The notes: generated by a model from the sequence alone, not told the origin. A stretch of 64,000 nt of DNA from Halobacteriovorax sp. (GCA_024686135.1 JAIBDQ010000001.1:26985-90984), one strand, 5' to 3'. Numbered from the stretch's first letter, positions 10,619-63,944 are shown. Made by a program: numbers and translations.

Positions 10619-10619
10619 G

Positions 10620-24053: not shown

Positions 24054-25124
24054 TTAATTAAAGTCAAAAAATTCTGAACCAACATTTCCTCTGCCTGCAG
24101 TAGGAACTGTCTGAGTATAGTTTGTTCCATCTATCACTGGCATTAGCCTTGGCATAGATGAAGCAGCTGGGTTTCTAGATTCTAGGATAGAATTATCAAA
24201 GCTAGGAGCTTCAAATCCACCGCTAGTTCCGATTCCTGGATAACCACCAAACCCGTAACCCATACCAGATCCACCCAGGTAATAAGTGTTAACCTGTGAC
24301 CTTGGTGCAGCAGCTTGTGGTCTATTCATCATGGACATTAACATGAACATTGAGAAAGGATCATTTCCAGCAGGAGCTAAAAGAGCAGGGGGTGATACTT
24401 CAAAAAATGAGTTTTGTTGACCTTGAATATGGGCAAAAAGCTGAGCATAAGTCATAACGTCTGCGCTAAAACCAGCTTGGGCATCTACATCTACTTCAGC
24501 GTCTTCATCAACCTCTGCCACTACATCTTCTTTATCTTTAAGAAGCTCGGCGATTTGTCCTTTAATATCCTCTAGTAAACCTTTGTTTTCACAAATCCTT
24601 TCGCTAGTAGCTGCTAAGGCAGCCTTTTGCTCTAGAAGTTCTGTTTCTTGGGCCTTAGAGATTTTTAAATTAAGCTTTTCTTTAACTTCGGCTGGGTAGA
24701 AATCGACCATCTCTTTAACAAGAGCATCGAAAGCTGGTTTATTTTCGTGTTCTGCCTTATCTGAAAAGAAACTTCTAAAGTCAGCAGAACGTGTTAAAAG
24801 ACGTGTTCCTTCAACTCCAAGTTCCTCTACTTCTTCGTCTCTCATCTGGATCAATTCACTTAATCCCGTATCTTCTGCATCTAAACGATTATGAAACTTT
24901 GTTCTGAATTCCTTATGGGTTTCAACTAATTTTTTGAAAGAAGAAAGCTCTACATCAACATTTTCAGCTGTTACAGCCTCAAACTCAACTGCATTGGCGA
25001 TTGTTCTAAAGATAGATGGGCTCCAATTGCCTGCAACAGACGAATGGTCGTAAACCACATTAGATCCAAAGGTAAACCCTAAAACTGAAAGTGCGAGAGC
25101 ACCCTTTGCTAGCATGGACTTCAT
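24054..25124 (-). CDS. exported coiled-coil protein B, paralogue of A in its C-terminal module
   Basis: 356 aa. Signal peptide, acidic coiled-coil middle, C-terminal segments alignable with protein A (MMNRPQ/MMNKMW, QVNTYY/QVNSYY, RNPA). SD GAGGAGAG. Confidence 0.75.
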   Translation of the reverse strand: MKSMLAKGALALSVLGFTFGSNVVYDHSSVAGNWSPSIFRTIANAVEFEAVTAENVDVELSSFKKLVETHKEFRTKFHNRLDAEDTGLSELIQMRDEEVEELGVEGTRLLTRSADFRSFFSDKAEHENKPAFDALVKEMVDFYPAEVKEKLNLKISKAQETELLEQKAALAATSERICENKGLLEDIKGQIAELLKDKEDVVAEVDEDAEVDVDAQAGFSADVMTYAQLFAHIQGQQNSFFEVSPPALLAPAGNDPFSMFMLMSMMNRPQAAAPRSQVNTYYLGGSGMGYGFGGYPGIGTSGGFEAPSFDNSILESRNPAASSMPRLMPVIDGTNYTQTVPTAGRGNVGSEFFDFN

Positions 25125-25680: not shown

Positions 25681-26082
25681 TCACTTTTTCTTAGGGTGCT
25701 GCTTTTGGATCTTTTCAATCTCAGAGAGGACCTTATTAAAGTTACCATCATTGATGATGATCTCATTTACCCCTGATTCCGCTAGGCTAGCTGCCATCTC
25801 ATCATCTGCCTCCGGTAGAATGGCCAAGATCGGCAATTCGTCACGCCCGTGAATATTACGGAGAAGTCCTACGATCTCTTCTGCTGGCATGTCTTCTGCC
25901 TCGTCCCCTTGGAGAATAACTAGGTCAAAAGGATGTTTTTCCACGAGATGGATGGCCTGAAAGCCTCCTCCTGCAAGTTCCACATTAAAGGCCTGCATTC
26001 TAAACCTTGAGCTGGTCTGCTTCTTGCGGGTGTCGTTCCCATCAATATAGAGAATATTATATTCTTCAGTTAGTGCTGACAT
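25681..26082 (-). CDS. stand-alone receiver-domain protein with degenerate phospho-acceptor pocket
   Basis: 133 aa from ATG 26082; the longer ORF-track version runs into tRNA-Gly. Receiver-like beta/alpha pattern, but hand alignment to CheY gives Q, L and N at the D57, T87 and K109 positions. Confidence 0.65.
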   Translation of the reverse strand: MSALTEEYNILYIDGNDTRKKQTSSRFRMQAFNVELAGGGFQAIHLVEKHPFDLVILQGDEAEDMPAEEIVGLLRNIHGRDELPILAILPEADDEMAASLAESGVNEIIINDGNFNKVLSEIEKIQKQHPKKK

Positions 26083-26126
26083 GGAGAGATTATCGCTAAA
26101 CTTAGATTTTGAGTAAAGAGGGAAAA

Positions 26127-26201
26127 TGGAGCGGCGACCGAGGGTCGAACTCGGGACCTTCTGCATGGCAAGCAGACGCACTACCACTGTGCTACCACCG
26201 C
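26127..26201 (-). tRNA. tRNA-Gly (anticodon GCC)
   Basis: 75-nt cloverleaf folded by hand. Acceptor GCGGTGG/TCGCCGC, D arm GCAC-AGTGGTA-GTGC, anticodon stem TCTGC/GCAGA with loop TTGCCAT, T arm CCGAG-TTCGACC-CTCGG, encoded CCA. Confidence 0.95.
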
Positions 26202-26257: not shown

Positions 26258-27064
26258 TTATTTTTTCCAGATTTTTTCTACCCATTCTGGGTGATCAATA
26301 AATGGGTTTCTATTTTTCTGAAACGTATATCCGCGATTATTTCTGTTTCTCTCGTGCTCACTTACAGGGTCCTGCTTATGCCACTTCAATAACATTCTTA
26401 CAAAGTGACCTTTGTAGACGCGGTCACGGCTACCATCTAGCCACTCGTGATGAAAGCTTTGGATTCGGTCTTCATATCTCGTGGCAAAATAAAGTAGTGA
26501 TCTTGCGATATCACCTTTGAATTCATCAATAGGTTCAAAAACTTTATTCCCAACATTTTCAAAAATATTTGTTCCTATTTTTGAGCCGTTCTTAGATGTC
26601 CATATTGCAACTTTTCCAACTTCACCAAAAGATAGGTGGCCTCTTCTATTGTTTACATATCCGTCTGAAGGATAAACGTGGAAGAAGTCTGAACGCATTG
26701 GTTTTCCTTTACTAAAGGAAGACTGAGGAAAGATATGTTCTCTATTGTAGCAGTCTGCTTCTTTCTTATAGTTTCCACATCTTTTTTTAGGAGAGTTAAA
26801 AATATAAGGATCTTTACCGTTTGGATTTTCAGAATACATATCAACAATAGAACCATCACCATCATAAGTCGTATCACGATCAGTTTCTTTGTAAGCATGA
26901 AATAGAGCGCCGTAGCTTTGTGATTTATGTGTTCGGGAGATGATTATTTTAAGGGCGGATTTTAATTGGTAGCCAGAGAGGCCTTCAACATTACTATAGT
27001 AATTTTTTGCTGCTATCGCTGAATTTGAAAATAAAACAGCAAAAATAATTATAAACTTATTCAC
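26258..27064 (-). CDS. secreted endonuclease I family nuclease (EndA/Vvn-like), paralogue 1
   Basis: Signal peptide. YNREHIFPQS, FEP..EFKGDIARSLLYF and NRNPFIDHPEW motifs. GTG start follows GAGGGG. Confidence 0.85.
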   Translation of the reverse strand: MNKFIIIFAVLFSNSAIAAKNYYSNVEGLSGYQLKSALKIIISRTHKSQSYGALFHAYKETDRDTTYDGDGSIVDMYSENPNGKDPYIFNSPKKRCGNYKKEADCYNREHIFPQSSFSKGKPMRSDFFHVYPSDGYVNNRRGHLSFGEVGKVAIWTSKNGSKIGTNIFENVGNKVFEPIDEFKGDIARSLLYFATRYEDRIQSFHHEWLDGSRDRVYKGHFVRMLLKWHKQDPVSEHERNRNNRGYTFQKNRNPFIDHPEWVEKIWKK

Positions 27065-33841: not shown

Positions 33842-34681
33842 TTAAAAGTTTTTTATTCTATCAACTAGATTTGGGAAATCGATAAAAGGATTTCTATTCC
33901 TTTGGATTTCAAAAATTGTTTGGTTTCTTTCTCTTTCTTCAGCATCGACAGGGTCAATTTCATGCCACTGTCTTAGATAAGCTTCTTGATGTTCTGAAAT
34001 CTTGATTTGGTAACGAATTGAAAAATAAAATAAGGCTCTCGCAACATTACCTTTATGTTCCGTAGGTGGTTCGAAATAATCATAACTACCCTTGGGAGTG
34101 CCTGAGTAGGAAGCTGCACAGTCATTTTCAAGAGGGTCACCATTAACATTTGCGAACTCGTTATTTCCTCGAACACTATTAGCTCTACTATCAGTAGGAA
34201 ATAAATGGTGAAGGTCTGACTTTTGAAGACCTTTTGGAAATCTTCCAGAGAACTTTGACTGGGGCCAAGTATGCTCACAATTGATTTGGCTGTGATTTGG
34301 AATAATATTTGGTCCAACTTGAGTCTGAGAATTCGTAACCTTTCTTCTGCAGTAAACGTCTTTAATATAATATCCGTCAGCGTCTTCCTCTAAATGAAGC
34401 TTTCCAAAAAGAACTTTTCTAGCTCCTCTGTATCCAAGAGATCTTTGCTCGTAACAATTTCCTTTTGGACCTTCAGCACAAGAACTAACGATGACATCGT
34501 CACCTTTTTTGACTCTAATATGTTTCTTTTCAAGAACATTAAAGAGAATCTCTTTTAGTTCTTGTCCGTTAACACTGGTATTTTTAAATTGTTGCTTAGT
34601 AGCGGTTGGGTAGTAATGAGAAACTGCGATAGCTTCCTGTGCCAATAGTAAGAATACGCTTACGACTAGTAATAACTTCAA
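33842..34681 (-). CDS. secreted endonuclease I family nuclease, paralogue 2
   Basis: Signal peptide. CEHTWPQSKF, DLHHLFPTD, FEPP..HKGNVARALFYF and NRNPFIDFP motifs. TTG start follows AGAGAGG. Confidence 0.85.
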   Translation of the reverse strand: MKLLLVVSVFLLLAQEAIAVSHYYPTATKQQFKNTSVNGQELKEILFNVLEKKHIRVKKGDDVIVSSCAEGPKGNCYEQRSLGYRGARKVLFGKLHLEEDADGYYIKDVYCRRKVTNSQTQVGPNIIPNHSQINCEHTWPQSKFSGRFPKGLQKSDLHHLFPTDSRANSVRGNNEFANVNGDPLENDCAASYSGTPKGSYDYFEPPTEHKGNVARALFYFSIRYQIKISEHQEAYLRQWHEIDPVDAEERERNQTIFEIQRNRNPFIDFPNLVDRIKNF

Positions 34682-35315: not shown

Positions 35316-35350
35316 TCCTAGTTCAATTTCAGAATTTTTGTCAGAATAAA

Positions 35351-35377
35351 AAAAGGCACCTTCTAGAGGTGCCTTTT
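35351..35377. terminator. bidirectional rho-independent terminator
   Basis: AAAAGGCACCT-TCTAG-AGGTGCCTTTT: a GC-containing stem flanked by an A-run and a T-run, between convergent genes. Confidence 0.7.
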
Positions 35378-35402
35378 CGTTATGTTTGAATAGCTTCTTT
35401 TC

Positions 35403-35525
35403 TTATTGAGAATATAGATCCACTAAAACCACAAACAAGATCATAATCGTAAACGCAAAGGGTGTTAATAATAGAACCGTATTTATCACCCCTGCCTCAA
35501 TTAGAGTAATCAGTGGTGTTTCCAT
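35403..35525 (-). CDS. 40-aa single-pass membrane peptide (unannotated small ORF)
   Basis: METPLITLIEAGVINTVLLLTPFAFTIMILFVVLVDLYSQ. AGGAGG lies 5 nt upstream of the ATG, directly after the rplY stop. The bidirectional terminator follows. Confidence 0.5.
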   Translation of the reverse strand: METPLITLIEAGVINTVLLLTPFAFTIMILFVVLVDLYSQ

Positions 35526-35539
35526 TTCTTCCTCCTTTT

Positions 35540-36142
35540 CTAAGAGGGAATCGAGATGGGCATGGGTTCTAGAATTGGTTTCCAAAACTCAACCATCTCT
35601 TCATCCGTTTTAACTGGGGGTCTACAAACTGCAATTACGGTATTATCCTTTTCTTCGATCTCAATATCTTCCTCGATTTCTAAGTCATCTACCGTTAGTG
35701 TCTCCCCAATTTTTAAACTCTTTATATTCTCTTCAATCTTTTCAGGTATATCTTCGACCATACCGTAAACATTAAGCGAATCCTTAAGAACAACGAGAAC
35801 CCCACCGTTCTTAACTCCTTTTGGAGTTCCTTCAAGTTTCACTGGGATCTCGACTTTATTTTCTCTATCCCTTGGCAGCTCAACCAAAGAGAAGTGAATA
35901 ATCTCTCTTGTTACCGGGTCCTTATGTATATCAATAAACTTAACAAACCTCGGTCCTAGTACAGTTTCAACCTTATACAACTCCCCAGGTTCTTTAAGTG
36001 CGGTCTTCAATTCTTTTTTGGGAATTCTAATGGGGGTACTATCTATAGTTTTCCCATATATTGAGCCGGGTACAAATCCATTTTCCCTGAGTTCCCAAGC
36101 TTTTCTTTTCTTATTTCTTTTTTTTATATGTAGTAGTTGCAT
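35540..36142 (-). CDS. rplY: 50S ribosomal protein L25, long Ctc (general stress protein) form
   Basis: 200 aa. N-terminal KAWELRENGFVPGSIYGK and a two-domain length typical of bL25/Ctc. SD AAGGA. Confidence 0.8.
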   Translation of the reverse strand: MQLLHIKKRNKKRKAWELRENGFVPGSIYGKTIDSTPIRIPKKELKTALKEPGELYKVETVLGPRFVKFIDIHKDPVTREIIHFSLVELPRDRENKVEIPVKLEGTPKGVKNGGVLVVLKDSLNVYGMVEDIPEKIEENIKSLKIGETLTVDDLEIEEDIEIEEKDNTVIAVCRPPVKTDEEMVEFWKPILEPMPISIPS

Positions 36143-36195
36143 TCTATGTCCTTGTGTTAAATTAATATTCTGGTCAGTGGCCGTTATCGATTTTG

Positions 36196-36834
36196 TTAAC
36201 TAGCCAGAACCATTCCTAACTTCAGGGCCCTTTGAGTACTGAAGGGGAGTTTTGTCGACTTATCTATTAAAGCTCCTGTAAAGTAAGCTTTCTCTAAGTC
36301 AGTTTCTCTTAAGTCTGCCCCTCTCATGTCACTTCTTCTAAGGTTTGCCTTAAAAAAGGTGCATTGCCTCATGTCCGCGCCTTTGAGGTTTGCCTCTCTC
36401 ATTTTTGTTAAGAAAAATGAGCATCCTCTAGCATTGGCATCTTCGAAGCTGACTCTGTCCATATCTGATCTCATGAAGCTTACGTTCATAAGAAAAGCCT
36501 TTTTAAAGTTCGAGCTCCAAATCCTAAGGTTTCTCATCTTGGTATTTACAATCTCAGAAGCGATAAACTTCGTTCTTTTCAAGTTCGCAAACTTAAACCA
36601 GGTTTTGTCGATATGACTTCCTGAAAAGTCTGCTTCTCTTAAGTCTGCCCTTCCAAGGTTTGAGCCCACAATATCTGAGCCTGAGAAATTAGCTCCTTGA
36701 GCGTTGGCAGAGTTCATATTTACGTCTTCTATCTTTAAGTTAGAAAAATCTCTACCTTCCAAATCTTTTAGCCTTAGGTCATCAACGTCCTGTAGTTTTA
36801 CATCTAATATCTTTTCAAATTCTTTTATCGCCAT
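36196..36834 (-). CDS. pentapeptide-repeat protein
   Basis: Continuous A(D/N)LxG/F-type pentapeptide units (ANFSGSDIVGSNLGRADLREADFSGS...). The start overlaps the upstream stop (ATGGCGATAA). Confidence 0.85.
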   Translation of the reverse strand: MAIKEFEKILDVKLQDVDDLRLKDLEGRDFSNLKIEDVNMNSANAQGANFSGSDIVGSNLGRADLREADFSGSHIDKTWFKFANLKRTKFIASEIVNTKMRNLRIWSSNFKKAFLMNVSFMRSDMDRVSFEDANARGCSFFLTKMREANLKGADMRQCTFFKANLRRSDMRGADLRETDLEKAYFTGALIDKSTKLPFSTQRALKLGMVLAS

Positions 36835-37304
36835 AACATACTCCGTTTTAAGTTATTGCGAGCTTTTGCTGTTTTCCATTTTTTTCTTTCACCAATAACG
36901 GCGTCTTCTAGAACCTCTAGTGAGTTGGAAATTGCTCGAGATAAATTTTCCGATGCCTTTCTCGCATATAAGACACCTGTTCCGGGTCTTTTTAAGGCAA
37001 CGCCACAACTAATTACTTCGTCATTGTCAGATCTCTTTGAGCTTTCATTATCCAGCCAAATTTCTACTTTCCATTTGCCGCTATTAGAAAACTTTCCGAG
37101 CGCTGACTTTAAGAAATACCTAATCGTACTTACGGTTTTTTGATAACTGGTATCAATATTGTTATGCACTTCAAGCTCAGGTACTTTAGCTTCTGAGCTT
37201 GAGGTAGAAGTAGGTTCACTCTTTTCAATAAACCTTTTGTAAACTTCTGAGTCCTCGAAAGATTCCCAGTTATCAATAACTTGTTCATTCTTCATGTTGC
37301 TCAT
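36825..37304 (-). CDS. HPF/RaiA-like ribosome-associated protein with acidic Ser-rich N-terminal extension (tentative)
   Basis: 159 aa from ATG 37304 (AGGAGG upstream). Residues about 42-145 align by eye with E. coli HPF/RaiA secondary-structure elements (LEVHNNID..., WKVEIWLD, VLYARKASENLSRAISNSLEVLEDAV..RKKWK). Confidence 0.45.
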   Translation of the reverse strand: MSNMKNEQVIDNWESFEDSEVYKRFIEKSEPTSTSSSEAKVPELEVHNNIDTSYQKTVSTIRYFLKSALGKFSNSGKWKVEIWLDNESSKRSDNDEVISCGVALKRPGTGVLYARKASENLSRAISNSLEVLEDAVIGERKKWKTAKARNNLKRSMLWR

Positions 37305-43737: not shown

Positions 43738-44283
43738 CTATGCGGCAGTCTTTAAGAAACGAGGCGCAGTAGTAAGGCTTTCATAAGGCTCTAGCCAGTC
43801 TTTACCACCCTCTATGACTTTTAGTTCAAAACCTGGCTTCCTCTTTTTAACGAGCTTCTTTGGAAAAAGAGAAATTGGAGAGTTCTCGACTTCAAAGCAA
43901 ATATTCGAGCGCTCTGGCATATCTCCAGAATGGATAGCTGCCAAGACAATATAAGCTCCAAAGCCATCTGCTTTAATGGTGCACTTCTTATCAGCACTTT
44001 TATGAACTCGGTCACAAAAACTTTGTCCGTAGTCTTCTAATTGTTCTTCGGCCAGTTTTAGAAAGTAATAAATTCTCTCTCTATCGCAAGAGGATAAATG
44101 TTGTTTTTCAGTGGAGGAAAGACCAATGTTTTGAAAGTGGCACATAAGAGTTTTTTGAAAATCCACGTCATCTTCTGGGGTTAGGTCATAAGCAAAGAGA
44201 GTTCGCGTTTGCTTTCCCACTTTAATCTGGATCTTTCCCTTGAAAGGGTTTGCTTGCTTTAAAGTCTTCTTGATATCAGTCAT
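43738..44283 (-). CDS. hypothetical protein
   Basis: 181-aa ORF that fits between neighbours without overlap. No recognised domain. Confidence 0.45.
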   Translation of the reverse strand: MTDIKKTLKQANPFKGKIQIKVGKQTRTLFAYDLTPEDDVDFQKTLMCHFQNIGLSSTEKQHLSSCDRERIYYFLKLAEEQLEDYGQSFCDRVHKSADKKCTIKADGFGAYIVLAAIHSGDMPERSNICFEVENSPISLFPKKLVKKRKPGFELKVIEGGKDWLEPYESLTTAPRFLKTAA

Positions 44284-44404: not shown

Positions 44405-45142
44405 CTAAACTCTTTCTATGGATAACTTTAAATTATAAGATTCCACTTTAAAGTCCACAGAATCCCCTCTAAGCCCTTTTTCAAGTTTTACAGAGAGCGT
44501 TTCGCTCATGATGTAATCAGAGTGTTTTAGGATAGCCTCTGCAAGCTCAGGGTCTGTTTCAAAGCCTACATTAATGCGGTCATCAACATTAAAACCTAGG
44601 TCCTTTCGGGTCTTTTGAATACGATTGACCACTTCTCTTGCCAGTCCTTCATGAATTAGCTCTGGATTTAGCTCGCAATCAAGATCAATTGAGATATAGC
44701 GGTTCGATAAGGCCTGGGTCCCTTCCTTGGCTTCTCTAAAGACAAGAATGTCTTCAGATTTAAAAACCTCACCATCAAGAGTAAGTTCTCCTTTTTGTTC
44801 AAGCTCAGATAACTCCGCTACCCCTAGGGCCTCGATTTGTTTTCTAACTTTCCCAAATTCCTTTCCAAATCTCTTTCCAAGAACAGGAGAGTTTGGCTTA
44901 CAAAATAGTTTGATAAAACTATCCTCATCTTGAGAGTACTCAACCTCTTTAATATTCAGTTCCGTTTGGATATAGCTTTCAAGTTTTGAAATTTCATCAA
45001 GAACATTTTTATCTTTATGAAGAACAGTAAGTTTAGATAGGGGAGTTTTCACTTTTATCTGAACTTGATTTCTCTTTTGTCTTCCTAAAAGGATAATTTG
45101 TTGCATTCTATCTACGGCATCTTCTAGTTCTGGAATAATCAT
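44405..45142 (-). CDS. ileS: isoleucine--tRNA ligase (type 2), C-terminal fragment downstream of an in-frame TAA
   Basis: In the same frame as ORF 45179-47533. The 12 codons between the TAA and this ATG read VHLCDYPVADES, part of the conserved region that follows the catalytic core. Confidence 0.8.
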   Translation of the reverse strand: MIIPELEDAVDRMQQIILLGRQKRNQVQIKVKTPLSKLTVLHKDKNVLDEISKLESYIQTELNIKEVEYSQDEDSFIKLFCKPNSPVLGKRFGKEFGKVRKQIEALGVAELSELEQKGELTLDGEVFKSEDILVFREAKEGTQALSNRYISIDLDCELNPELIHEGLAREVVNRIQKTRKDLGFNVDDRINVGFETDPELAEAILKHSDYIMSETLSVKLEKGLRGDSVDFKVESYNLKLSIERV

Positions 45143-45178
45143 GGACTCATCGGCAACTGGGTAGTCGCAAAGATGAAC

Positions 45179-47533
45179 TTATTCAGCTTCTTTTGAACCT
45201 GGATTGAACTTTAGAAGTTCTTGGTAAACATGCTCACTTAAAAATGGTGAGAATGGAGCCATCGCCGTGGATAACTCTTTGATACAAGTATACAAAGTAG
45301 AGTAGGCTGAGCATTTATCATCTGAAAGGCCTTCTCCCCAAAAACGGGATCGATTCAAGCGGATATACCAATTGGTAAGGTCTTCAATAAATGTAAAAAG
45401 GGCCGGTACCACATTGTATAGTTTGTAGGCTTCCATCTCTTTAGAGATATTTTTCTTTAGAGTTTGAAGATTTGAAAGGATCCAACGGTCGGTGATATTA
45501 TCTCCAACCTCGAAATTTTCCTTTGAGTTCCAGCCATCAACTTCAGCATAAGTAGAAAAGAATTTGAATGAGTTGTACCAAGGAAGAAGGGCACGGCGAA
45601 CCATGTCCTTTACTCCGCTATCAGCAAATCTCTGATCTTCAGCTCTAACCAGCCCTGAGTTTATAAGGTAAAGCCTTAGGGCATCGGCCCCAAAGTCTTC
45701 CATGAGTAAGTCAGGAGCGGTGTAGTTCTTAAGCCGCTTACTCATCTTTTTACCGTCTTCTGCATTTACGATGCCGTTAACGATAACGTTTTTAAAAGCA
45801 GGCTTCTCAAAAAGGGCAGTACTTAAAACGGTTAAGGTATAAAACCAGCCACGGGTCTGATCTAAGCCTTCGGCGATAAACTCTGCAGGGAAGCCTTGTT
45901 CGAAAACGTCGCTGTTTTCAAAAGGGTAATGAAGCTGAGCATAAGGCATAGAGCCTGATTCAAACCAACAGTCGAGAACTTCTGTGATTCTTTTATAAGT
46001 TCCTTCTTCTCCATCAATATTAAATTCGATTGGGTCAACAACTTCTCTATGGAGGTCATCAACTTTAATTCCAGTGTATTTTTCAAGTTCTTCAATTGAC
46101 CCTATACAGAGAAACTTCTCAGACTTTTGGTTAAACCAAACGGGAAGAGGTGTTCCCCAAACTCTGTTACGTGAGATAGACCAGTCACGAGCACCTTCAA
46201 GCCATTTACCAAAACGACCATCTTTTAGGTGGTCGGGAACCCATCTTACCTGGCTATTAGACTTAAGAAGCTTGTCCTTTATGGACTCAACGTTTACATA
46301 CCAGGAAGGGATAACTTTATAGATAAGTGGTGTATCTGAACGAGGACAGAAAGGATAACTGTGTACAAGAACTGATTGCTCAAAGACTTTATCTTCATCC
46401 TTGAGTTTCTTTATGATTCCTTTGTCGGCATCTTTTACATACTGTCCTACAAAATCAGAAACAGCGTCAGTAAATAACCCATGATCATCGATTGGACATT
46501 CTAGGGCATCGATCTTGGCTTCTTTCATCACTCTATTATCATCTTCACCAAAGGCAGGAGCGATATGAACGATTCCTGTACCAGCGTCAGTCGTGACATA
46601 GCCATCATTTAATATTTGAAAGGCCCCTTCTGATTCATATTTAGAAAAATAAGAAAAGAGAGGTTCATACTTCTTACCTTTTAAGTCAGACCCTTTCATT
46701 TCTTCGAGGGTTTCAAACTCTCTTTTTTTGCTATAAGCCTCTAAGCGATCTTTAGCAAAGTAGATGCTTTTGCCAGATTCTTTCTCTTTTACTTTTACGT
46801 AATCGATATCTGCACCAGCACAGAGACATAAGTTTGATGGCAAAGTCCAGGGGGTTGTCGTCCAAGCGGCAACATAGGCATCTTCATCTTTTAATTTAAA
46901 GAGAACCGTTACTGCTGGATCTTGAACGTCCATATAGTTTTGACCAGCCTCAAAATTTGAAAGGACAGTTCCAAGAGCTGTTGAGTAGGGAACTACTCTG
47001 GTTCCTTGATAAATTAGTTTTTTATCCCAAAGTTGTTTAAAAACCCACCAAACAGATTCCATGAAAGTAACATCCATGGTTTTATAATCATTTTCAAAAT
47101 CAACCCATCGGCCAATTCGAGTGATGGTCTTTTCCCACTCATTTGTATATCTTTGAACAATCCCACGGCACTCATCGTTGTAACCTTTGATGCCTAACTT
47201 CTCGACGGCAGCTTGAGCTGACATACCTAGTTTCTTGTCGATCTCATGCTCAACAGGAAGACCGTGGCAATCCCAACCAAAACGTCTCTCTACATAGCGA
47301 CCTTTCATCGTCCAATATCTAGGAACAGCATCTTTTAGAATCGAACCAACTAGGTGTCCGTGGTGCGGTAGGCCTGTTGCAAATGGAGGACCGTCATAAA
47401 AAATATAGGGAGCACCTGACTTTGTTTTTTCCAAAGACTTTTTAAAAATATCTTTCTCTTTCCAAAACTTTAAGATCTCTTGTTCGGTTTCGACGAATGA
47501 AAAGGCTTCGTTCGTTTTCTCAACTTCACTCAC
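45179..47533 (-). CDS. ileS: isoleucine--tRNA ligase (type 2), N-terminal 784-aa fragment ending at an in-frame TAA
   Basis: HIGH-type motif PPFATGLPHHGHL, KMSKS motif KMSKRLKNY, editing-domain insert. GTG start follows AGGAG. The two fragments together would give about 1042 aa, normal for type-2 IleRS. Confidence 0.9.
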   Translation of the reverse strand: MSEVEKTNEAFSFVETEQEILKFWKEKDIFKKSLEKTKSGAPYIFYDGPPFATGLPHHGHLVGSILKDAVPRYWTMKGRYVERRFGWDCHGLPVEHEIDKKLGMSAQAAVEKLGIKGYNDECRGIVQRYTNEWEKTITRIGRWVDFENDYKTMDVTFMESVWWVFKQLWDKKLIYQGTRVVPYSTALGTVLSNFEAGQNYMDVQDPAVTVLFKLKDEDAYVAAWTTTPWTLPSNLCLCAGADIDYVKVKEKESGKSIYFAKDRLEAYSKKREFETLEEMKGSDLKGKKYEPLFSYFSKYESEGAFQILNDGYVTTDAGTGIVHIAPAFGEDDNRVMKEAKIDALECPIDDHGLFTDAVSDFVGQYVKDADKGIIKKLKDEDKVFEQSVLVHSYPFCPRSDTPLIYKVIPSWYVNVESIKDKLLKSNSQVRWVPDHLKDGRFGKWLEGARDWSISRNRVWGTPLPVWFNQKSEKFLCIGSIEELEKYTGIKVDDLHREVVDPIEFNIDGEEGTYKRITEVLDCWFESGSMPYAQLHYPFENSDVFEQGFPAEFIAEGLDQTRGWFYTLTVLSTALFEKPAFKNVIVNGIVNAEDGKKMSKRLKNYTAPDLLMEDFGADALRLYLINSGLVRAEDQRFADSGVKDMVRRALLPWYNSFKFFSTYAEVDGWNSKENFEVGDNITDRWILSNLQTLKKNISKEMEAYKLYNVVPALFTFIEDLTNWYIRLNRSRFWGEGLSDDKCSAYSTLYTCIKELSTAMAPFSPFLSEHVYQELLKFNPGSKEAE

Positions 47534-47695
47534 GGCAAACTCCTACTTTATAGTGAGGGCGGCATAATAGCCTCGAAAAGATGCAATTTCAACGACTTGC
47601 CTCAATCTAGTCTTAGCTAGGGGCAATCAATTCCCCCGAGGCTTAATTAGCCGATTTTACTGGTTTTTGAAAAACTCTCAACCGAAAAGTTATGT

Positions 47696-49252
47696 ATGAA
47701 ACATTGGACTCTTTTTCTTTTTCTGATTTTGGCGAGCTCGCTTTCCTATGGGGATGATCTGGATGCACTAGATGCCATGCTCGACAGTGATGAGAAAATG
47801 GACGAGATTTCTCTAGATTTGGCGATGGATGTGGAAACAACTGAAAGTAGAGGAAAAGGCAGAGCCGAAAATGAATTTCGTTTGTATCGTGAAAATCGAG
47901 ATGTTCAGTTTAATTTTAAAGGCGTGAAAAAGAACCTCATTAAATGGAATGAAATTAATCCAGATGGCTGGCTTAGTCTAGGCGCCTGGAAAAAGTCTAG
48001 AGTAAGAAAAGATCAAGAGCCGGAGTGGAAACTAAACTTAATTGAAAGAAACTTAAGAGAACTTGTAGGTCGTTTTTTAGAATGTGTTGGAGACTGCCGA
48101 ATTTATAGAGGAGAAGGTTTTTCAACTTCTCAGTTTAAATCAAGGGTAAGAGAGTTAGACGAAATTATAACTCAAGAGAATTCTTACGCTTGGATTGCTA
48201 TCGCAGATGGAACTATGGTGCGCCTTTCTCCAAATACCTCTGTAAGTTTTAAAGAAATAAATATTGGAAAGAAAGAAAATTTTATTCATTTAAGGATCAA
48301 CTCAGGAAATCTATTAGTTTTAAACAGAGCAAAGCATAAATATAAAGTCCGAAATCTTAGAGAAACGGACAAAGTTTTTTTACCTTTAGGAGTAAACGCC
48401 GCGAACCCAGAAGAAGTAAAAATTAAACTGAATGAAGATGATCTATCAAACTTTATTGAAAAAAACACAACGGTTCAAAAGCATTATGAAAAACTTAATA
48501 CTTATATTGAAGCCAATAATGATTTGATTGAAGGAAAAGAAACACACACCATGGTTGTTATGCCAAACGGAACTGTTTTTGGGAAGAATATGCAAGCTGA
48601 ATTTGTCGTGCTCCTAGGTGGGGAGTCTTATGTAAAGCAAAGAACGTTCGCAGAACAGTTTATGGAATTAGATGAAGAGTCTGACCCAGAGTCAGAGCTA
48701 GAGTATTTCTATAGAGGATTTGAAAATAAAGAAAAGTTCTCACTTGAGGCGGGTAATTGGTATAGAGTCGGAATTAAAGGGAAGTCTATTGTTCCCCATA
48801 CAGACCCACAGATTTTTAGAGTTGGTGAGTATTTAACGAGTAATATACCAAGCATTCTTTTAGCCAGAGAAATATTATTAGAAGAAAAGAGTGAGTTCAT
48901 TTTTAAAACTGGAATTAGCCGTAAAGACTTAGCCGAAAATGGTGGCTACCGACTATGGGGCGAGATAGATAAAAAAGGTGATGATCTAAATTTGAGAGTT
49001 CGATTTCTAAAGGAATACACGAGAAGAATTGAGACCACTAACTTAGTTGTCGCTAGACAATTTAAGAGAAGAGCCAGTGATAGAGGCGAGTTAACTAAAA
49101 GTATGATTTACGATAGTTCGTTCTACGATCGAGCACTGAGAGATTATATCGTGAGTCGTGATTCGGAAATTGTTGTTGATACTGATAGAGAAGTGTTAAA
49201 CTCAACCAAAAAGCTTTTCTGGAAGATTATCAATGAGAAAAAAAGAAAGTGA
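47696..49252 (+). CDS. exported FecR-domain-like protein
   Basis: Signal peptide. The segment AWIAIADGTMVRLSPNTSVSFKEIN resembles the FecR sensor domain. Confidence 0.45.
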   Translation: MKHWTLFLFLILASSLSYGDDLDALDAMLDSDEKMDEISLDLAMDVETTESRGKGRAENEFRLYRENRDVQFNFKGVKKNLIKWNEINPDGWLSLGAWKKSRVRKDQEPEWKLNLIERNLRELVGRFLECVGDCRIYRGEGFSTSQFKSRVRELDEIITQENSYAWIAIADGTMVRLSPNTSVSFKEINIGKKENFIHLRINSGNLLVLNRAKHKYKVRNLRETDKVFLPLGVNAANPEEVKIKLNEDDLSNFIEKNTTVQKHYEKLNTYIEANNDLIEGKETHTMVVMPNGTVFGKNMQAEFVVLLGGESYVKQRTFAEQFMELDEESDPESELEYFYRGFENKEKFSLEAGNWYRVGIKGKSIVPHTDPQIFRVGEYLTSNIPSILLAREILLEEKSEFIFKTGISRKDLAENGGYRLWGEIDKKGDDLNLRVRFLKEYTRRIETTNLVVARQFKRRASDRGELTKSMIYDSSFYDRALRDYIVSRDSEIVVDTDREVLNSTKKLFWKIINEKKRK

Positions 49253-50816: not shown

Positions 50817-51779
50817 ATGAAGAGTATTATCATCCTCGCAGGTCTTATATTTTCAATTACTGGCTGTGGAACGTTCAAAAAAATGGCCATCGGAACAACT
50901 TCGGGCATGTTTTATGAGGCTACTGGAGAACTGGAAACAGATGGAAACTGGGACAGTTTTAAATCCGGTGCCATGGGGAATATCAAGCTGATGGAAGGTC
51001 TTCTTTATATTGCTCCAGGTGACGATGATCTTCTGGCAAGTTTAACTAAGGCCTACGCTGGTTATGCTTTTGGCGTTTATGAAACTTTATATTTAGGAGA
51101 TAAGCTTGCTGAAAATGATGAAGAGCATAACTTAAATCAAGCCATTTATAATTATTCAAAGGCCGTTAATTACGGACTTGCTTACTTGAAAGAACAAGGT
51201 GTTTCCTTTGAAAGATTAAAGAAGAATATAGGAGACGTTAAGGAAATTTTAAAAGATGAACTTGGAACTGGTAAAAGAGATCTTGAAACAGCTTTTTATG
51301 TAGGGCAGGCACTAGGATCTCTAGTTAATCTTCAAAAAACAAATATGGCCTTAATTACTTTGGTACCTATGGCCAAGGGAATGTTTGATTATGTTTGTGA
51401 GACTGAGCCGGAGTTTAATCATGGAGCCTGTGGTATCTTTTATGGTTCATATGAAGCCAGTAGACCAAAAATGCTAGGTGGAAATCCTGAAAAAGGTAAA
51501 CAGATCTTTTTGAAGACAATTAAAGAAAATCCACATAACTGGTTTGCTAGAGCGGCCTTCATAGAGCAGTACATAGTTCCCATGGTGGATGAAGACGAAT
51601 ACGAAACGCAAAAGGAATTCTTGGAAGAAGCTGCAGAAAGTTTTGATAAAGAACTTAAATGGAATCCCTTCAAAAAAGAAAGCGAAGCTGCATTCAAGAA
51701 GAAGAGCCTAAAGGTTTTTCAAGCTCTTGGTTTAAAAAGATTTGAAATTATTAGTAAATACGAAAAAGAAATTTTCTAG
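50817..51779 (+). CDS. TatT-like TPR lipoprotein component of a TRAP transporter
   Basis: Lipobox FSITGC. All-helical TPR-like sequence. Positioned directly upstream of dctP/Q/M-type genes, as in TPR-protein-associated TRAP transporters. Confidence 0.55.
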   Translation: MKSIIILAGLIFSITGCGTFKKMAIGTTSGMFYEATGELETDGNWDSFKSGAMGNIKLMEGLLYIAPGDDDLLASLTKAYAGYAFGVYETLYLGDKLAENDEEHNLNQAIYNYSKAVNYGLAYLKEQGVSFERLKKNIGDVKEILKDELGTGKRDLETAFYVGQALGSLVNLQKTNMALITLVPMAKGMFDYVCETEPEFNHGACGIFYGSYEASRPKMLGGNPEKGKQIFLKTIKENPHNWFARAAFIEQYIVPMVDEDEYETQKEFLEEAAESFDKELKWNPFKKESEAAFKKKSLKVFQALGLKRFEIISKYEKEIF

Positions 51780-51793
51780 ATAAGGAATAGATT

Positions 51794-52762
51794 ATGATTA
51801 AATCACTCTTAGTGCTTGGGTCACTATTAATTACAACTCAACTTTACGCGGTTACATTGAAATTTGGTGTTCTTGCTCCAGAAGGAACTAACTGGGCAAA
51901 GCAGATGAAGAAGATGGCGAAAGAAGTAAAGAAGGCGACCAATAAAAAGGTTAAATTTAAAATTTATTTCGGTGGTGCTCAGGGAGATGAGCATGACGTT
52001 TTACGAAAAATTCGAGTTGGTCAGTTACATGGTGGTATGTTTACGGGTAAGACACTTGGAGATATCAATGGTGATGTGAGAGTCGTCGAACTTCCATTCA
52101 CATTTATGGGAGATCGGTCAAAGGCCTGGAATGCCGTTGAGAAGATGGCTGGATTCTTTGACAAAGGTTTTAACAAAAATGAATTTGTTAATTTAGGTTT
52201 TAGTGAAATTGGTCTAGTTTATTTTGTTAGTCAAAAAGATACACCAAATATTAAAGCTCTTAATGGTGTTAAAATTTGGTCTTGGGAAGGTGATAAACTT
52301 GTTTCGGCCATGATTGAAGAAATGAAGCTGATCTCAGTGCCACTACCGCTGCCAGATGTTCTTAGTTCACTTTCGACAGGAATTATCGAAGCTGCTTATG
52401 CTCCTCCGCTAGGAATTGTTTCTCTTCAGTGGAATTCAAAAATTAAATATTTAGTGGATTTCCCAATTGCCTATTCTGTCGGTGCATTCCTCGTTAGTAA
52501 TAAAGGTTGGAACAAGGTTCCAGCTGAACATCGTGAAACAGTTAAGAAAATAACGGCAAAATATATTGCAAAAGTATCTAAAGCTAACGTCGATGACAAT
52601 CAAGCCGCGCTTGAAAGTATGAAAGCACTCGGAGTTAAGTTTACAAAGTTTCCTGATTCAGATGTTGAAACTGGAAAGAAACTAAGAGAACAAATTGTGA
52701 AAAAGCTTAAAGGTAAGTTATTTTCTGCTGAAGCATATAATTTATTATTGAAACACCTCTAG
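51794..52762 (+). CDS. dctP: TRAP transporter substrate-binding protein (DctP type)
   Basis: Signal peptide plus DctP-like sequence (KFGVLAPEGTNWAK..., VRKIRVGQLHGG). Confidence 0.8.
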   Translation: MIKSLLVLGSLLITTQLYAVTLKFGVLAPEGTNWAKQMKKMAKEVKKATNKKVKFKIYFGGAQGDEHDVLRKIRVGQLHGGMFTGKTLGDINGDVRVVELPFTFMGDRSKAWNAVEKMAGFFDKGFNKNEFVNLGFSEIGLVYFVSQKDTPNIKALNGVKIWSWEGDKLVSAMIEEMKLISVPLPLPDVLSSLSTGIIEAAYAPPLGIVSLQWNSKIKYLVDFPIAYSVGAFLVSNKGWNKVPAEHRETVKKITAKYIAKVSKANVDDNQAALESMKALGVKFTKFPDSDVETGKKLREQIVKKLKGKLFSAEAYNLLLKHL

Positions 52763-52772
52763 GAGGTATCTT

Positions 52773-53276
52773 TTGGGATTTTTAAGGGCCATAGATAAAG
52801 GCGTTGAGAAAGTTGCAGGCTGGGGATTAGTCGTCTGCGTTTTAACAATGCTTTTTTTGAGTACGTTAGTCATTGTTATGAGATGGTTTGGAGTTACCTT
52901 TCTTTGGTTTGACCCATTCATCAGACATGTTGTTTTCATTAGTACTTTTCTCGGTGGAGTAATTGCAACGGGAAGAGGAACTCATATTGGAATCGATATC
53001 CTTGGAAAATATCTTGAAAGTAAAAATATGGAAGGAGCGCAAGTATGGATTGAACGTCTTATTGCATTCGTTTCTGCAGGGACACTTGTTTGGTTAATCC
53101 AAGCCTCTTGGGCCTTCATGTTGAGTGAGCTCAAGTATGGAAAACCTAGCTTCTTTGGAATTCATAGTGGATATCTAACGGCAATTATTCCAATTGGTTT
53201 CGCCCTCATTGCTTATCGATTCTTCTTTCTTTTTGTAGCAAGCTTTTCCTCAAAAGAGGAGGCTTCGAATGTTTGA
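52773..53276 (+). CDS. dctQ: TRAP transporter small permease (DctQ type)
   Basis: 167 aa with four hydrophobic helices. TTG start 6 nt after AGGAGG, which overlaps the dctP TAG stop. Confidence 0.8.
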   Translation: MGFLRAIDKGVEKVAGWGLVVCVLTMLFLSTLVIVMRWFGVTFLWFDPFIRHVVFISTFLGGVIATGRGTHIGIDILGKYLESKNMEGAQVWIERLIAFVSAGTLVWLIQASWAFMLSELKYGKPSFFGIHSGYLTAIIPIGFALIAYRFFFLFVASFSSKEEASNV

Positions 53277-54531
53277 AACGCTGAGTTTTTTAGGGATACT
53301 CTTACTCGCAGGTTTTGGAGTTCCACTTTTTATTATCATGTCGCTCTTTGCTCTGACCGCTTTTAGTTTTACTGATGTAGAGCTCTCGGCAGTGGCCATT
53401 GAAATCTATAGAATTTCCTCACAGGCCTCAATTTTAACAATCCCACTTTTTACTTTTGCCGGTTATATGATGGCCGAAAGTAAGTCACCACAAAGGCTAT
53501 TAAGGTTTGCAGAAGCTGCCCTCGGTTGGCTTCCTGGTGGTGTCGCCATAGTCTCCCTTGTTATCTGTGCTTTTTTCACCGCATTTACGGGTGCGAGTGG
53601 TGTGACCATTATTGCTCTAGGTGGTTTGCTTTATCCAATACTTAGAAATGAAGACTATTCTGAAAAATTTAGTTTAGGTCTTATTACAACCTCGGGGTCA
53701 TTAGGCCTTCTCTTTCCACCAAGTTTACCCATCATTCTTTATGGTCTTGTGGCAAAAGTGGATATCGATAAATTGTTCCTTGCCGGAATTATCCCAGGGA
53801 TCCTTCTTATTGTTATTCTTTCTGCTTGGTCTATTAAGAATGGAAACCTATCTGCTAGGAAAACAAAGTTTGATGGTGGTGAGTTACTTGCCGCATTCAA
53901 AGGATCGTTTTTAGAATGTCTTCTTCCTGTGGGTGTCTTAGTCGGAATCTACGGCGGTTTTACGACGGCAACCGAAGCCGCAGCACTTACCGCTTTTTAT
54001 ATTTTTGTCATTGAATGTTTTGTTTATAAAGATTTAGATCTTTTTAAAGATATCCCAAATGTAATACTAGATTCGATGAGCTTAGTCGGTGGAATTCTTT
54101 TAATCTTATGTTGCGCTCTTGGACTTACAAACTATTTAGTAGACGAAGAAATTCCAATGCAAATTCTCGATATGATGAGAGAGTTTTTGACGAATAAATA
54201 TAGTTTCTTACTCTTTCTAAATATCTTTTTGTTGATTGTTGGTTCATTGATGGATATTTTCTCTGCTATAATCGTAGTTGTGCCATTGATTACTCCAATC
54301 GCTGAAGAGTTTGGGGTTAACCCAATTCATCTAGCAATAATCTTTTTGACTAACCTAGAGATTGGATATATTACGCCACCTGTCGGAATCAATCTGTTTA
54401 TTTCAAGTTTTAGGTTTAAGAAGCCAGTCACAGAGCTGTATAAAGCTTCTTTTCCTTTTTTGATATTATTGATTATTGCCCTGCTTATTATTACTTATGT
54501 TCCGGCCTTAAGCCTGTACATGGTTGAGTAG
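53269..54531 (+). CDS. dctM: TRAP transporter large permease (DctM type)
   Basis: 420 aa polytopic membrane protein that overlaps dctQ by 8 nt. SD AGAGGAGG. Confidence 0.9.
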   Translation: MFETLSFLGILLLAGFGVPLFIIMSLFALTAFSFTDVELSAVAIEIYRISSQASILTIPLFTFAGYMMAESKSPQRLLRFAEAALGWLPGGVAIVSLVICAFFTAFTGASGVTIIALGGLLYPILRNEDYSEKFSLGLITTSGSLGLLFPPSLPIILYGLVAKVDIDKLFLAGIIPGILLIVILSAWSIKNGNLSARKTKFDGGELLAAFKGSFLECLLPVGVLVGIYGGFTTATEAAALTAFYIFVIECFVYKDLDLFKDIPNVILDSMSLVGGILLILCCALGLTNYLVDEEIPMQILDMMREFLTNKYSFLLFLNIFLLIVGSLMDIFSAIIVVVPLITPIAEEFGVNPIHLAIIFLTNLEIGYITPPVGINLFISSFRFKKPVTELYKASFPFLILLIIALLIITYVPALSLYMVE

Positions 54532-54567: not shown

Positions 54568-56118
54568 TTGGTAAAATGTTTTACTGCCCATGGAGCTCCA
54601 TCAAGTAACGCTTATTACGATCATGTTTACTTGGGGGAGAAAAATTTTGGGCAGTACTATGGCCCTCTCCATCCAGATTATAGAATAAATAAAAATGATC
54701 GTGATCTAGAGTTCGAAGATGATCTTTTTGTTGATAAATATTTTGATGATCTTATATCTCCAGGCCTCCTGAACTGGAAGTATCGCTGGAGTGAAGAACT
54801 TCCAGCTCAAAGTTTTTGTCCAAATTATTACCTAAGTCAAAATATAGATTATATTCGTTACCTCTACCGCTTGCTTACTATAAGTTATTCTTTCGAAGCG
54901 ATGAAAGACTACAATGTTCTTCTCTATAGATTAGGCATGGATGATTCTAAGTGTTCAATTAAATGGAAGCACAATTTTAAAAGCTGTAAGCCCAAATCAG
55001 TAGAGATGAGAAAGTTTTTACGACGGGCGAAGTATAAATACCTCACGGCAGGTGAGGAAAAAAGATATATCCTACAAACCAAGCAAGATAGAGCTATTTG
55101 GCTAAATAACTTTAGGCGAAATCATAAGGATTATAAAAAAGTTGGAATTACAGAGGGGCTCCTTAGCACTATTTGTAGAGATGAAGACAAAAACTGTTCA
55201 TTGCTATCTATGAAAGAGATTGAAGGGCTTATCCATAAATCTTGCGATAGAGAAAAAGCACTTATTCAAAAGATTTGTAATGAAGATGATAACTTATATG
55301 GAATTAGCTACAGCAAGGTTCCTGTAGAGCTCTTGAAGAGTGCTAATACTTTATCCGTAATAAATGGCGGAGGATATGGTGAGCAATGCTTGATGCGGTA
55401 TGCAGATATTTTTAAAGACAGACAGTTTAAGCACGACCATCTGAATAACTTATTCGAAGTTGTAAAAATTAATTTGGCCAAAAGAAAAACGCGCTATTTG
55501 CAAGGGGCTATTTTTCTACCGGGAGCTCTAAAGGAGTTTGACGATAAAGGACTTGGGGATTTTATTTTTGCTGCTCCGACACCAAAACCTACGCCAAAAC
55601 CAACACCAAAGCCAACACTAAGGCCCACTCCAAAACCAACACCAAAGCCGGTTATTGCCACGCCCACACCAACGCCGATGGCAACACCGACTGCAGTGCC
55701 GACACCAGTACCTGTGAAGTATTCACAGTTTGAAGTAGCAAGAAGAGAGAGGTACAACAAAAGTTTGGACGAGGTCGTAGTGAATATGGAACTTTTTAAA
55801 GATGACTTTGTTTTTACTGAGAAGATGTTAGAAGTATTGGAAGACCCTCTTAAGGATTACCAAACAAGACAGGCCCTTCAAGATATGAAGACTTTTGACA
55901 AACTAGGTACGAAGGTTGAACCGGTTCGTTTAACCTTCTTAAAATATTTTATCGATAGAAATAGCCATCAGGGACTTTTTAATATTCAGGCCATAATTGG
56001 AAAAAGCTTTTGGGTTAAAAATGATATTGATAATATCAAAGGGGCTACTTTTGTGGAAATAAGAAATAATAAGTCGACTGGAAATAGATGGACAATAGTT
56101 GTTAAGAGATCCCCTTGA
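54568..56118 (+). CDS. exported Cys-rich protein with Pro/Thr/Lys linker; true start probably ATA 54541
   Basis: 516 aa from TTG. The in-frame upstream codons add KIIFTILLL, completing a signal peptide. Central (TPKP)n linker. No recognised domains. Confidence 0.6.
   Translation: MVKCFTAHGAPSSNAYYDHVYLGEKNFGQYYGPLHPDYRINKNDRDLEFEDDLFVDKYFDDLISPGLLNWKYRWSEELPAQSFCPNYYLSQNIDYIRYLYRLLTISYSFEAMKDYNVLLYRLGMDDSKCSIKWKHNFKSCKPKSVEMRKFLRRAKYKYLTAGEEKRYILQTKQDRAIWLNNFRRNHKDYKKVGITEGLLSTICRDEDKNCSLLSMKEIEGLIHKSCDREKALIQKICNEDDNLYGISYSKVPVELLKSANTLSVINGGGYGEQCLMRYADIFKDRQFKHDHLNNLFEVVKINLAKRKTRYLQGAIFLPGALKEFDDKGLGDFIFAAPTPKPTPKPTPKPTLRPTPKPTPKPVIATPTPTPMATPTAVPTPVPVKYSQFEVARRERYNKSLDEVVVNMELFKDDFVFTEKMLEVLEDPLKDYQTRQALQDMKTFDKLGTKVEPVRLTFLKYFIDRNSHQGLFNIQAIIGKSFWVKNDIDNIKGATFVEIRNNKSTGNRWTIVVKRSP
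55579..55650 (+). repeat. in-frame tandem 12-nt repeat (6 units) encoding (T-P-K-P)n
   Basis: ACACCAAAACCT ACGCCAAAACCA ACACCAAAGCCA ACACTAAGGCCC ACTCCAAAACCA ACACCAAAGCCG. Confidence 0.9.
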
Positions 56119-62597: not shown

Positions 62598-63944
62598 ATG
62601 AAAAGGATTGCACTACTTTCTATTATTCTAGCCTCCATAGGCATCTTTACATACCAGTATGAAGAAAAGGGTGGTCTAGAGAGATTAGCAGAGAAAGAGG
62701 CTAAGCATAAAATAATCGATGAAGCATTTCTTGGTGAACTAAGAGAAATCAGCGCTAGTAACTTCAGCCTTAAAAAAGAAGGCGATTTCTTTCGAACCTC
62801 TAAGGGGACCCTCGTTGATGCTGAAAGATTACAAAAGTACTTAGATGTTTTAGGTAAGATGAAAGTAAAGAGGTACCTTAAATCTGAGGAAAAGAACCCC
62901 CTTTTTTTTCCTGTGGATTCACCTATTCTAAAATTCACATTTGCCAATGGCTATGCTCACTTCAAGCTTGGAGAAAAGCTTGATTTTGATCAAAGCTTTT
63001 ATATGGAAGTAAATCAAAATGGAGAAGTTAAGCAAATGATTGCTTTTGACTCTTCTCCTAACGAAGGGACTTATGACAAAGCCACCTTTCATAAAAACCC
63101 TGAAAAATATTTAAGGTTTAAAACTTTAATCCTTCTAGAGGAAGACTTCTTTATCGATACCCATATTTTTCAAGAAGAGTATGTGGCCAAGAAAGTAGAA
63201 TGGGTTTCAATCACTGTTGTGAATAATAGTTCTGATCCATTTGAATTAATCATACCTGAAAGGGAGATAATGCCCCCTCCTCCATATAATTTGAAAACCA
63301 GACGAGCCTCTTATCATGAGTTTATTTCTGAACTGGTAAATTTCACTGGTGTCGGCTGGATGAAACCAGGTAAGCTTTCGAACTCAGTTGCTACTCTTAT
63401 TACAAAAGATAAGTCTGAGAGTATAAAAACGATCAAAATCTTTAGGAAGCTAGACGAAAGAGAAGGTTTTTATGCTCATCTTGTAGAGAAAAATAAGATT
63501 CTTAGTTTTGAAAAGGATAAGTTAAAGATATTCCTTAAGAAGGAGAACGACTTCTGGGAACTAAAAGCCGTTAATGAAGACCAGCCCCAAGAAATCACGA
63601 TGGAGTTTCCATCCGGTGAGAAGATCAACGTTAACCTCAACCACGGAAAGCTCTTTGAAGCCCGAACCGTTAAAAGCACTGATGGGGAGCCTATAAATAC
63701 GGCCTTTAAATATCTAATTGACGTCTTTTCTAAAGAGGCCGACGATTTAACCCCATTAGATGGCAATGAGAACCTTAATAAAAGCCTTTTTAAGGTTTCT
63801 TGGGGTGTTGAAGGCCAGTTATTTCATGTTATGCTAATTGGAGGAGAGATAATTCTAGCCAATAAAGAGCTAGGTTTTATGCTTCACTATAAATATCTAG
63901 ACTTACAGAAGTTTGGAAAAGGGATAAAGGATTTCTTTTTATAA
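62598..63944 (+). CDS. membrane-anchored protein following GldG-like gene (DUF4340-like by position)
   Basis: 448 aa with one N-terminal TM helix. Starts 2 nt after the gldG-like stop. Confidence 0.45.
   Translation: MKRIALLSIILASIGIFTYQYEEKGGLERLAEKEAKHKIIDEAFLGELREISASNFSLKKEGDFFRTSKGTLVDAERLQKYLDVLGKMKVKRYLKSEEKNPLFFPVDSPILKFTFANGYAHFKLGEKLDFDQSFYMEVNQNGEVKQMIAFDSSPNEGTYDKATFHKNPEKYLRFKTLILLEEDFFIDTHIFQEEYVAKKVEWVSITVVNNSSDPFELIIPEREIMPPPPYNLKTRRASYHEFISELVNFTGVGWMKPGKLSNSVATLITKDKSESIKTIKIFRKLDEREGFYAHLVEKNKILSFEKDKLKIFLKKENDFWELKAVNEDQPQEITMEFPSGEKINVNLNHGKLFEARTVKSTDGEPINTAFKYLIDVFSKEADDLTPLDGNENLNKSLFKVSWGVEGQLFHVMLIGGEIILANKELGFMLHYKYLDLQKFGKGIKDFFL

Follow-up and report, generated by a model that had tools for sequence, protein, structure and literature searches.

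The type-2 isoleucyl-tRNA synthetase gene (ileS) analysed here is interrupted by an in-frame TAA at codon 785 and is otherwise pristine, which makes a one-base sequencing or assembly error the most likely cause. Judging from the gene and its relatives, we put the probability that this TAA stems from a technical error of one base in a draft genome at roughly 0.7. A coding TCA would then have been turned into TAA (G to T at position 45180 on the plus strand) during amplification, sequencing or assembly, the draft in question possibly being a metagenome-assembled genome (MAG) or a single-cell assembly. The TAA would most likely be absent from the genome of the living lineage, and the enzyme actually encoded would be 1042 aa long and carry Ser785.

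An interrupted type-2 ileS frame

The gene occupies positions 44405-47533 on the minus strand of the window, the 64-kb stretch of DNA that was analysed. Upon translation it comprises 1042 sense codons and a terminal TAA, with the interruption at codon 785 formed by the TAA at 45179-45181 (minus strand). The minus-strand reading at this point is GAA GCT GAA TAA GTT CAT CTT TGC GAC TAC CCA GTT GCC GAT GAG TCC ATG. Two ORFs result, one of 784 aa with a GTG start (45179-47533) and one of 245 aa with an ATG start (44405-45142), which lie in one frame and are separated solely by this TAA. The composing elements of the locus are the following:

47540-47544, minus strand: Shine-Dalgarno sequence AGGAG for the genuine GTG start of ileS (duplex energy with the anti-Shine-Dalgarno sequence -6.8 kcal/mol)
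45182-47533, minus strand: N-terminal 784 codons, with the catalytic Rossmann fold, the editing domain and the greater part of the helical anticodon-binding domain
47354-47365, minus strand: HHGH motif (residues 57-60)
45734-45748, minus strand: KMSKR motif (residues 596-600)
45350-45370, minus strand: WYIRLNR motif with R728, equivalent of R721 in PmIleRS2 (alignment to 8c9d)
45143-45178, minus strand: twelve in-frame codons, VHLCDYPVADES, from the TAA to the next ATG, holding the remainder of the invariant SVHLxxYP motif
44405-45142, minus strand: 245-codon C-terminal ORF, covering the ARD2/INS/ARD3 anticodon-recognition region (Pfam DUF5915 in intact relatives)
44606-44608, minus strand: codon of R976, equivalent of R964 in PmIleRS2

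A sequence-only reading had proposed that these two ORFs, parted by a lone in-frame TAA, are the halves of a type-2 ileS with the hallmarks PPFATGLPHHGHL and KMSKRLKNY, and the present analysis bears this out: the joined length is 1042 aa, and both hallmarks are found, with HHGH and KMSKR as their class I signatures. The 784-aa part alone scores 904.6 bits against the NCBIfam equivalog profile TIGR00392 (ileS; cutoff 621.4), while the match of the 245-aa C-part to the type-2 MupA/MupB models is confined to their last 200-odd positions (profile positions 782-997). An equivalog score above the cutoff, HxGH and KMSKS motifs and a type-2 C-terminal tRNA-recognition region are thus all present, as expected for an IleRS2; the single uninterrupted frame of around 1040 codons is broken by the TAA at codon 785. 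Intact relatives carry PF19302 in the C-terminal region.

The type-2 architecture is shared with the IleRS2 of P. (Priestia) megaterium (PmIleRS2; PDB 8C8U/8C8V/8C9D) and with MupA/MupB, down to the HxGH and KMSKS motifs, the SVHLxxYP motif in the helical anticodon-binding domain, and the ARD2/INS/ARD3 region with its Q-x-x-R-K anticodon pocket. These enzymes are distant relatives and, unlike the window gene, have no internal stop. An assignment as MupA or MupB orthologue was rejected, as the window ileS scores far below their 1900-bit cutoffs.

A product of 784 aa would break off within the helical anticodon-binding domain, without ARD2/INS/ARD3. The C-part aligns to residues 715-1000 of PmIleRS2 (8c9d), with the 245-codon ORF at about 785-1000, a span that takes in Q961/R964/K965; the equivalents in this alignment are Q973/R976/K977, with R976 located in IQKTRKDLGF (44591-44620), well past the TAA. 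In PmIleRS2, R964 in ARD3 recognises G34 and is essential: the R964A variant shows a 10^3-fold drop in aminoacylation, isoleucyl transfer that is 10^4 times lower, and no complementation in vivo (preprint 10.64898/2026.02.03.703510). Because the equivalent of R964 falls after the TAA, a stop fixed in the sole ileS, leaving the truncated 784-aa enzyme as the only IleRS, would by analogy with the PmIleRS2 data be expected to be lethal.

Conservation of the site and signs of selection

In a MAFFT alignment of the related proteins retrieved, the column of codon 785 is Ser in 122 out of 122 Bacteriovoracaceae homologues, a count that leaves out the window's own two fragments; all 122 are uninterrupted at this column. 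The TAA also falls opposite the Ser of KSVHLADYP in P. megaterium IleRS2 (8c9d) and that of RSVHFLSYP in a eukaryotic cytoplasmic IleRS (8wnd/7d5c). The motif it disrupts, at its Ser, is S-V/I-H-L-x-x-Y-P. Among the closer relatives, codon 785 is TCA (L001) or TCT (L002-L004, and L006, a Tara contig). TAA differs from TCA by a single C-to-A transversion, the plus strand having T at 45180 where the relatives have G. Both the (E)SVHL...P motif that had been suggested, with the TAA in the place of its Ser, and the guess that one C-to-A step from TCA produced the stop agree with these data, the latter in that the nearest relative has TCA. The site lies outside any homopolymer or other classic error context, a point against a technical error.

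The best matches of the ileS product are marine-metagenome IleRS proteins of Halobacteriovorax, Bacteriovoracaceae and Oligoflexia. Two of them, P0001 (Ga0076921_102084, JGI metagenome 3300005733) and MBK24443.1 (P0121; Halobacteriovorax sp. MAG SP2999, PBIO01000014.1), show 96% amino acid identity, for P0001 over 100% of the length, and are exactly 1042 aa long. They have the 1042-codon frame and the gene order in common with the window, and the surroundings of the site are identical, KEAE-S-VHLCDYPVADESMIIPELE. Unlike the window gene, they are uninterrupted, with Ser785 encoded by TCT or TCA. Nucleotide identity of ileS to its closest relatives is around 85%, the differences being nearly all synonymous; at this level, the genes of MBK24443.1 and P0001 belong to species different from that of the window. 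The loci of close relatives are collinear with the window over approximately 23 kb, and all other genes there are equal in length to those of the window. A comparison with orthologues, which had been suggested as a check, thus finds no relative split: codon 785 encodes Ser (TCA or TCT) in each of them, and all are full-length.

The interrupted allele appears confined to a single record. Its split products (P0019 and P0124) are each recorded on one 93,663-bp NCBI contig and nowhere else in the protein collection, and the repaired 1042-aa protein with Ser785 has no exact match in that collection of 15 billion proteins. A degenerate DNA scan for KEAE-x-VHLCDYPVADE across GTDB species-representative genomes and JGI metagenomes recovered only two relatives, both with Ser; the match among the GTDB species representatives was PBIO01000014.1 (Halobacteriovorax sp. 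SP2999) alone. The absence of the window genome from the GTDB representatives may be taken as a weak hint that it is a low-quality draft. The species of the window has been sampled a second time: a 1.5-kb Logan contig (L007) of run SRR13262723 carries exactly the same L25 protein. This contig is 99.87% identical to window positions 35337-36839, with two synonymous C/T transitions as the only differences, while the next relatives reach around 78%; this identity places the window species in another read set. A search with 83 aa for fragments spanning codon 785 returned three candidates, with two unrelated short matches above threshold. An accession search of the literature for run SRR13262723 found nothing.

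Neither side of the TAA bears marks of decay. Compared with L001 and L003, the dN/dS of the window gene is 0.015-0.018 in the N-part and 0.033-0.036 in the C-part, against 0.017 in both parts between L001 and L003, which are intact. Codon differences from close relatives amount to 304 synonymous and 30 nonsynonymous upstream of the TAA and to 87 and 12 downstream, and the twelve codons between the TAA and ATG 45142 show no nonsynonymous change relative to L001 or L003. Polarisation against eight close relatives leaves seven differences unique to the window protein. Six are conservative replacements in variable columns (D/E, V/L, S/T, I/V, E/K and S/T), of which five fall among the 784 codons upstream of the TAA and one among the 257 downstream; the last is the TAA itself, which takes the place of a 100% invariant Ser. 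A decaying pseudogene is rejected by the single lesion, the dN/dS of 0.015-0.036 and the six conservative private substitutions, save for one only a few generations old. On this evidence, ileS has been under full purifying selection over its whole length for essentially all its history. The lack of decay on either side implies that the stop either arose extremely recently or is not real.

Explanations for the stop codon

Four explanations had been offered for the TAA: a sequencing or assembly error, a tolerated nonsense mutation, re-initiation and read-through. An error is clearly favoured among them: the gene carries a single lesion and is undecayed both before and after it, the allele is known from one contig only, and the other genes of the window are unbroken. 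Around 60 other ORFs in the window have full domain coverage or a length that matches their orthologues; in Pfam scans of around 50 other window ORFs, domains were completely covered and none of the genes was split, which leaves ileS as the one broken gene seen in the 64 kb. This clean remainder also implies that the assembly is not obviously error-prone, which counts against a technical error. Nonetheless, a clean window with ileS alone broken is compatible with one stray consensus error. Consensus error rates of draft assemblies are, as a rough figure, 1e-5 to 1e-6, and a stop results from around 5.3% of the single-base changes that are possible in ileS. With such a share, even a low rate would be expected to give an occasional nonsense artefact per draft of a few Mb. 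The same clean surroundings, together with the fact that the TAA is a clean single substitution, can be read in favour of a real, very recent nonsense mutation in a newborn pseudogene, compensated by a second IleRS encoded by a type-1 ileS or another type-2 copy. Such pairs are known, as ileS2 occurs beside ileS1 as a second gene in some bacteria (PMC10485003). We consider this explanation unlikely, since selection on the single-lesion gene is not relaxed (dN/dS 0.02-0.04), the TAA allele is known from one assembly only, and the 64-kb window contains no second ileS. In all Bacteriovoracaceae relatives, moreover, ileS2 is intact and under strong constraint, as would fit a housekeeping role.

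That the TAA is genuine and the locus still yields a working IleRS, either in two pieces that lack SVHLxxYP or through decoding of UAA as Ser or another residue, is highly improbable. For the two-piece variant, in which residues 1-784 and 798-1042 would assemble non-covalently after re-initiation at ATG 45142, the odds are slimmer still. This ATG is in frame and only 12 codons past the TAA, and natural split class I synthetases do exist, such as the LeuRS alpha/beta of Aquifex aeolicus, while fragments of the E. coli IleRS complement each other. Like the Aquifex enzyme, the window gene presents a large class Ia synthetase as two consecutive ORFs. Genuine splits come with translation signals of their own, recur among relatives and keep all conserved residues; the window ileS differs from them in all three respects. 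No Shine-Dalgarno sequence precedes ATG 45142: its 20 upstream nucleotides pair with the anti-Shine-Dalgarno sequence at -2.2 kcal/mol, a value equalled or surpassed by 63% of the background 20-mers in ileS and by 77% of the ATG-start ORFs of the window (median of 43 such ORFs -5.6 kcal/mol; genuine GTG start of ileS -6.8). No relative is split, and the invariant S-VHLCDYP segment plus VADES is missing from both ORF products. The Met and its flanks are identical in the intact P0001, so nothing here is adapted to a split. The re-initiation that had been suggested is thus disfavoured, and the gene does not qualify as a naturally split synthetase.

Least probable is that a real TAA is decoded as sense by programmed read-through or a suppressor tRNA to give a full-length IleRS, even though the frame downstream of it is perfectly preserved. 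UAA terminates 31 of the 58 window ORFs of at least 150 aa and is their commonest ordinary stop, which contradicts a genome-wide reassignment of TAA and upholds the earlier view that this was unlikely. No TAA in the window other than codon 785 lies between two long open stretches of one frame. At the three further single-stop junctions the codon is TAG and separates adjacent ORFs, one pair of which is annotated as two separate genes in the locus of a relative. In bacteria, a G after UAA makes for strong, efficient termination, and we know of no bacterial system that recodes UAA. The 121 nt around and after the TAA fold no better than shuffled sequences (z = -0.16). No suppressor tRNA with a stop-reading anticodon is present in the 64-kb window, where the Rfam elements comprise only two ordinary tRNAs, tRNA-Arg(TCT) and tRNA-Gly(GCC). 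With a UAA codon, no RNA signal or special tRNA in the window and plain Ser codons in the orthologues, the gene does not qualify as a case of programmed recoding (selenocysteine, pyrrolysine or read-through), and the read-through raised by the sequence-only reading is disfavoured as well.

Meaning for the Halobacteriovorax lineage

If the TAA were real, it would point to a second IleRS in a Halobacteriovorax lineage, with a bearing on the redundancy of ileS1 and ileS2 seen in some bacteria. Alternatively, it would make this an essential synthetase that is split or recoded; this would come as a real surprise, as neither such a natural split nor UAA recoding would have a precedent in an essential bacterial synthetase. 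Nothing in the sequence supports a second IleRS or a split or recoded synthetase. If the TAA is a technical error, as we favour, the matter is one of annotation only: the pair of ORFs ought to be joined into a single ileS or marked as an internal-stop pseudogene, and the record regarded as a draft that contains one or more consensus errors. The gene itself would then be an ordinary, functional housekeeping type-2 IleRS, made as a single polypeptide by a marine Halobacteriovorax-like predator of the Bacteriovoracaceae.

The same population in independent reads

A contig assembled by Logan from run SRR13262723 (L007, positions 1-1503) aligns to window positions 35337-36839 with 99.87% identity, the two differences being C/T substitutions that are both synonymous, while the next-closest genomes reach only ~78% identity over this segment. 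SRR13262723, an independent public read set, therefore also contains this species or strain population.

Genes without a Pfam match

Several large ORFs of the window (356-518 aa) have no Pfam match at a cut-off of E<=1e-5, nor does the gene located directly downstream of ileS:

47696-49252, +, large ORF
54568-56118, +, large ORF
22365-23879, -, large ORF
24054-25124, -, large ORF
62598-63944, +, large ORF
43738-44283, -, 181-aa gene directly downstream of ileS

The 518-aa and 516-aa ORFs have counterparts of equal length at the same position in related loci, for which no Pfam match is recorded either. Likewise, the 181-aa gene has an equal-length counterpart at the same position in all relatives examined. 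An identity as lspA was considered for it, but no signal peptidase II match is found.

Transport genes

Two groups of transport genes lie on the forward strand:

8603-11783, +, TonB-dependent receptor gene followed by a gene for an HmuY-domain protein
50817-54531, +, TRAP-type transporter cluster of four genes (products of 320, 322, 167 and 420 aa)

The former looks like a haem-uptake pair. For the latter, the collinear counterparts in L001, a related metagenomic locus, are equal in length and match TAtT (PF16811), DctP, DctQ and DctM, and the gene order is kept in the Halobacteriovorax relatives. The cluster presumably resembles the TPR-protein-associated TRAP (TPAT) arrangement.

A tRNA gene and two Endonuclease I paralogues

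26127-26201, -, tRNA-Gly(GCC)
25681-26187, -, mechanically called 168-aa ORF with a response-regulator domain
26258-27064, -, first Endonuclease I (PF04231) paralogue, by Pfam
33842-34681, -, second Endonuclease I (PF04231) paralogue, by Pfam

The tRNA gene overlaps the 5' end of the 168-aa ORF. Because the response-regulator domain begins only at residue 45, the true start of this ORF is probably downstream of the tRNA gene. Both Endonuclease I copies are found inside 8 kb of the window, the second one carrying a divergent N-terminal extension of ~110 aa. These paralogues may be nucleases with which the predator degrades the DNA of its prey.
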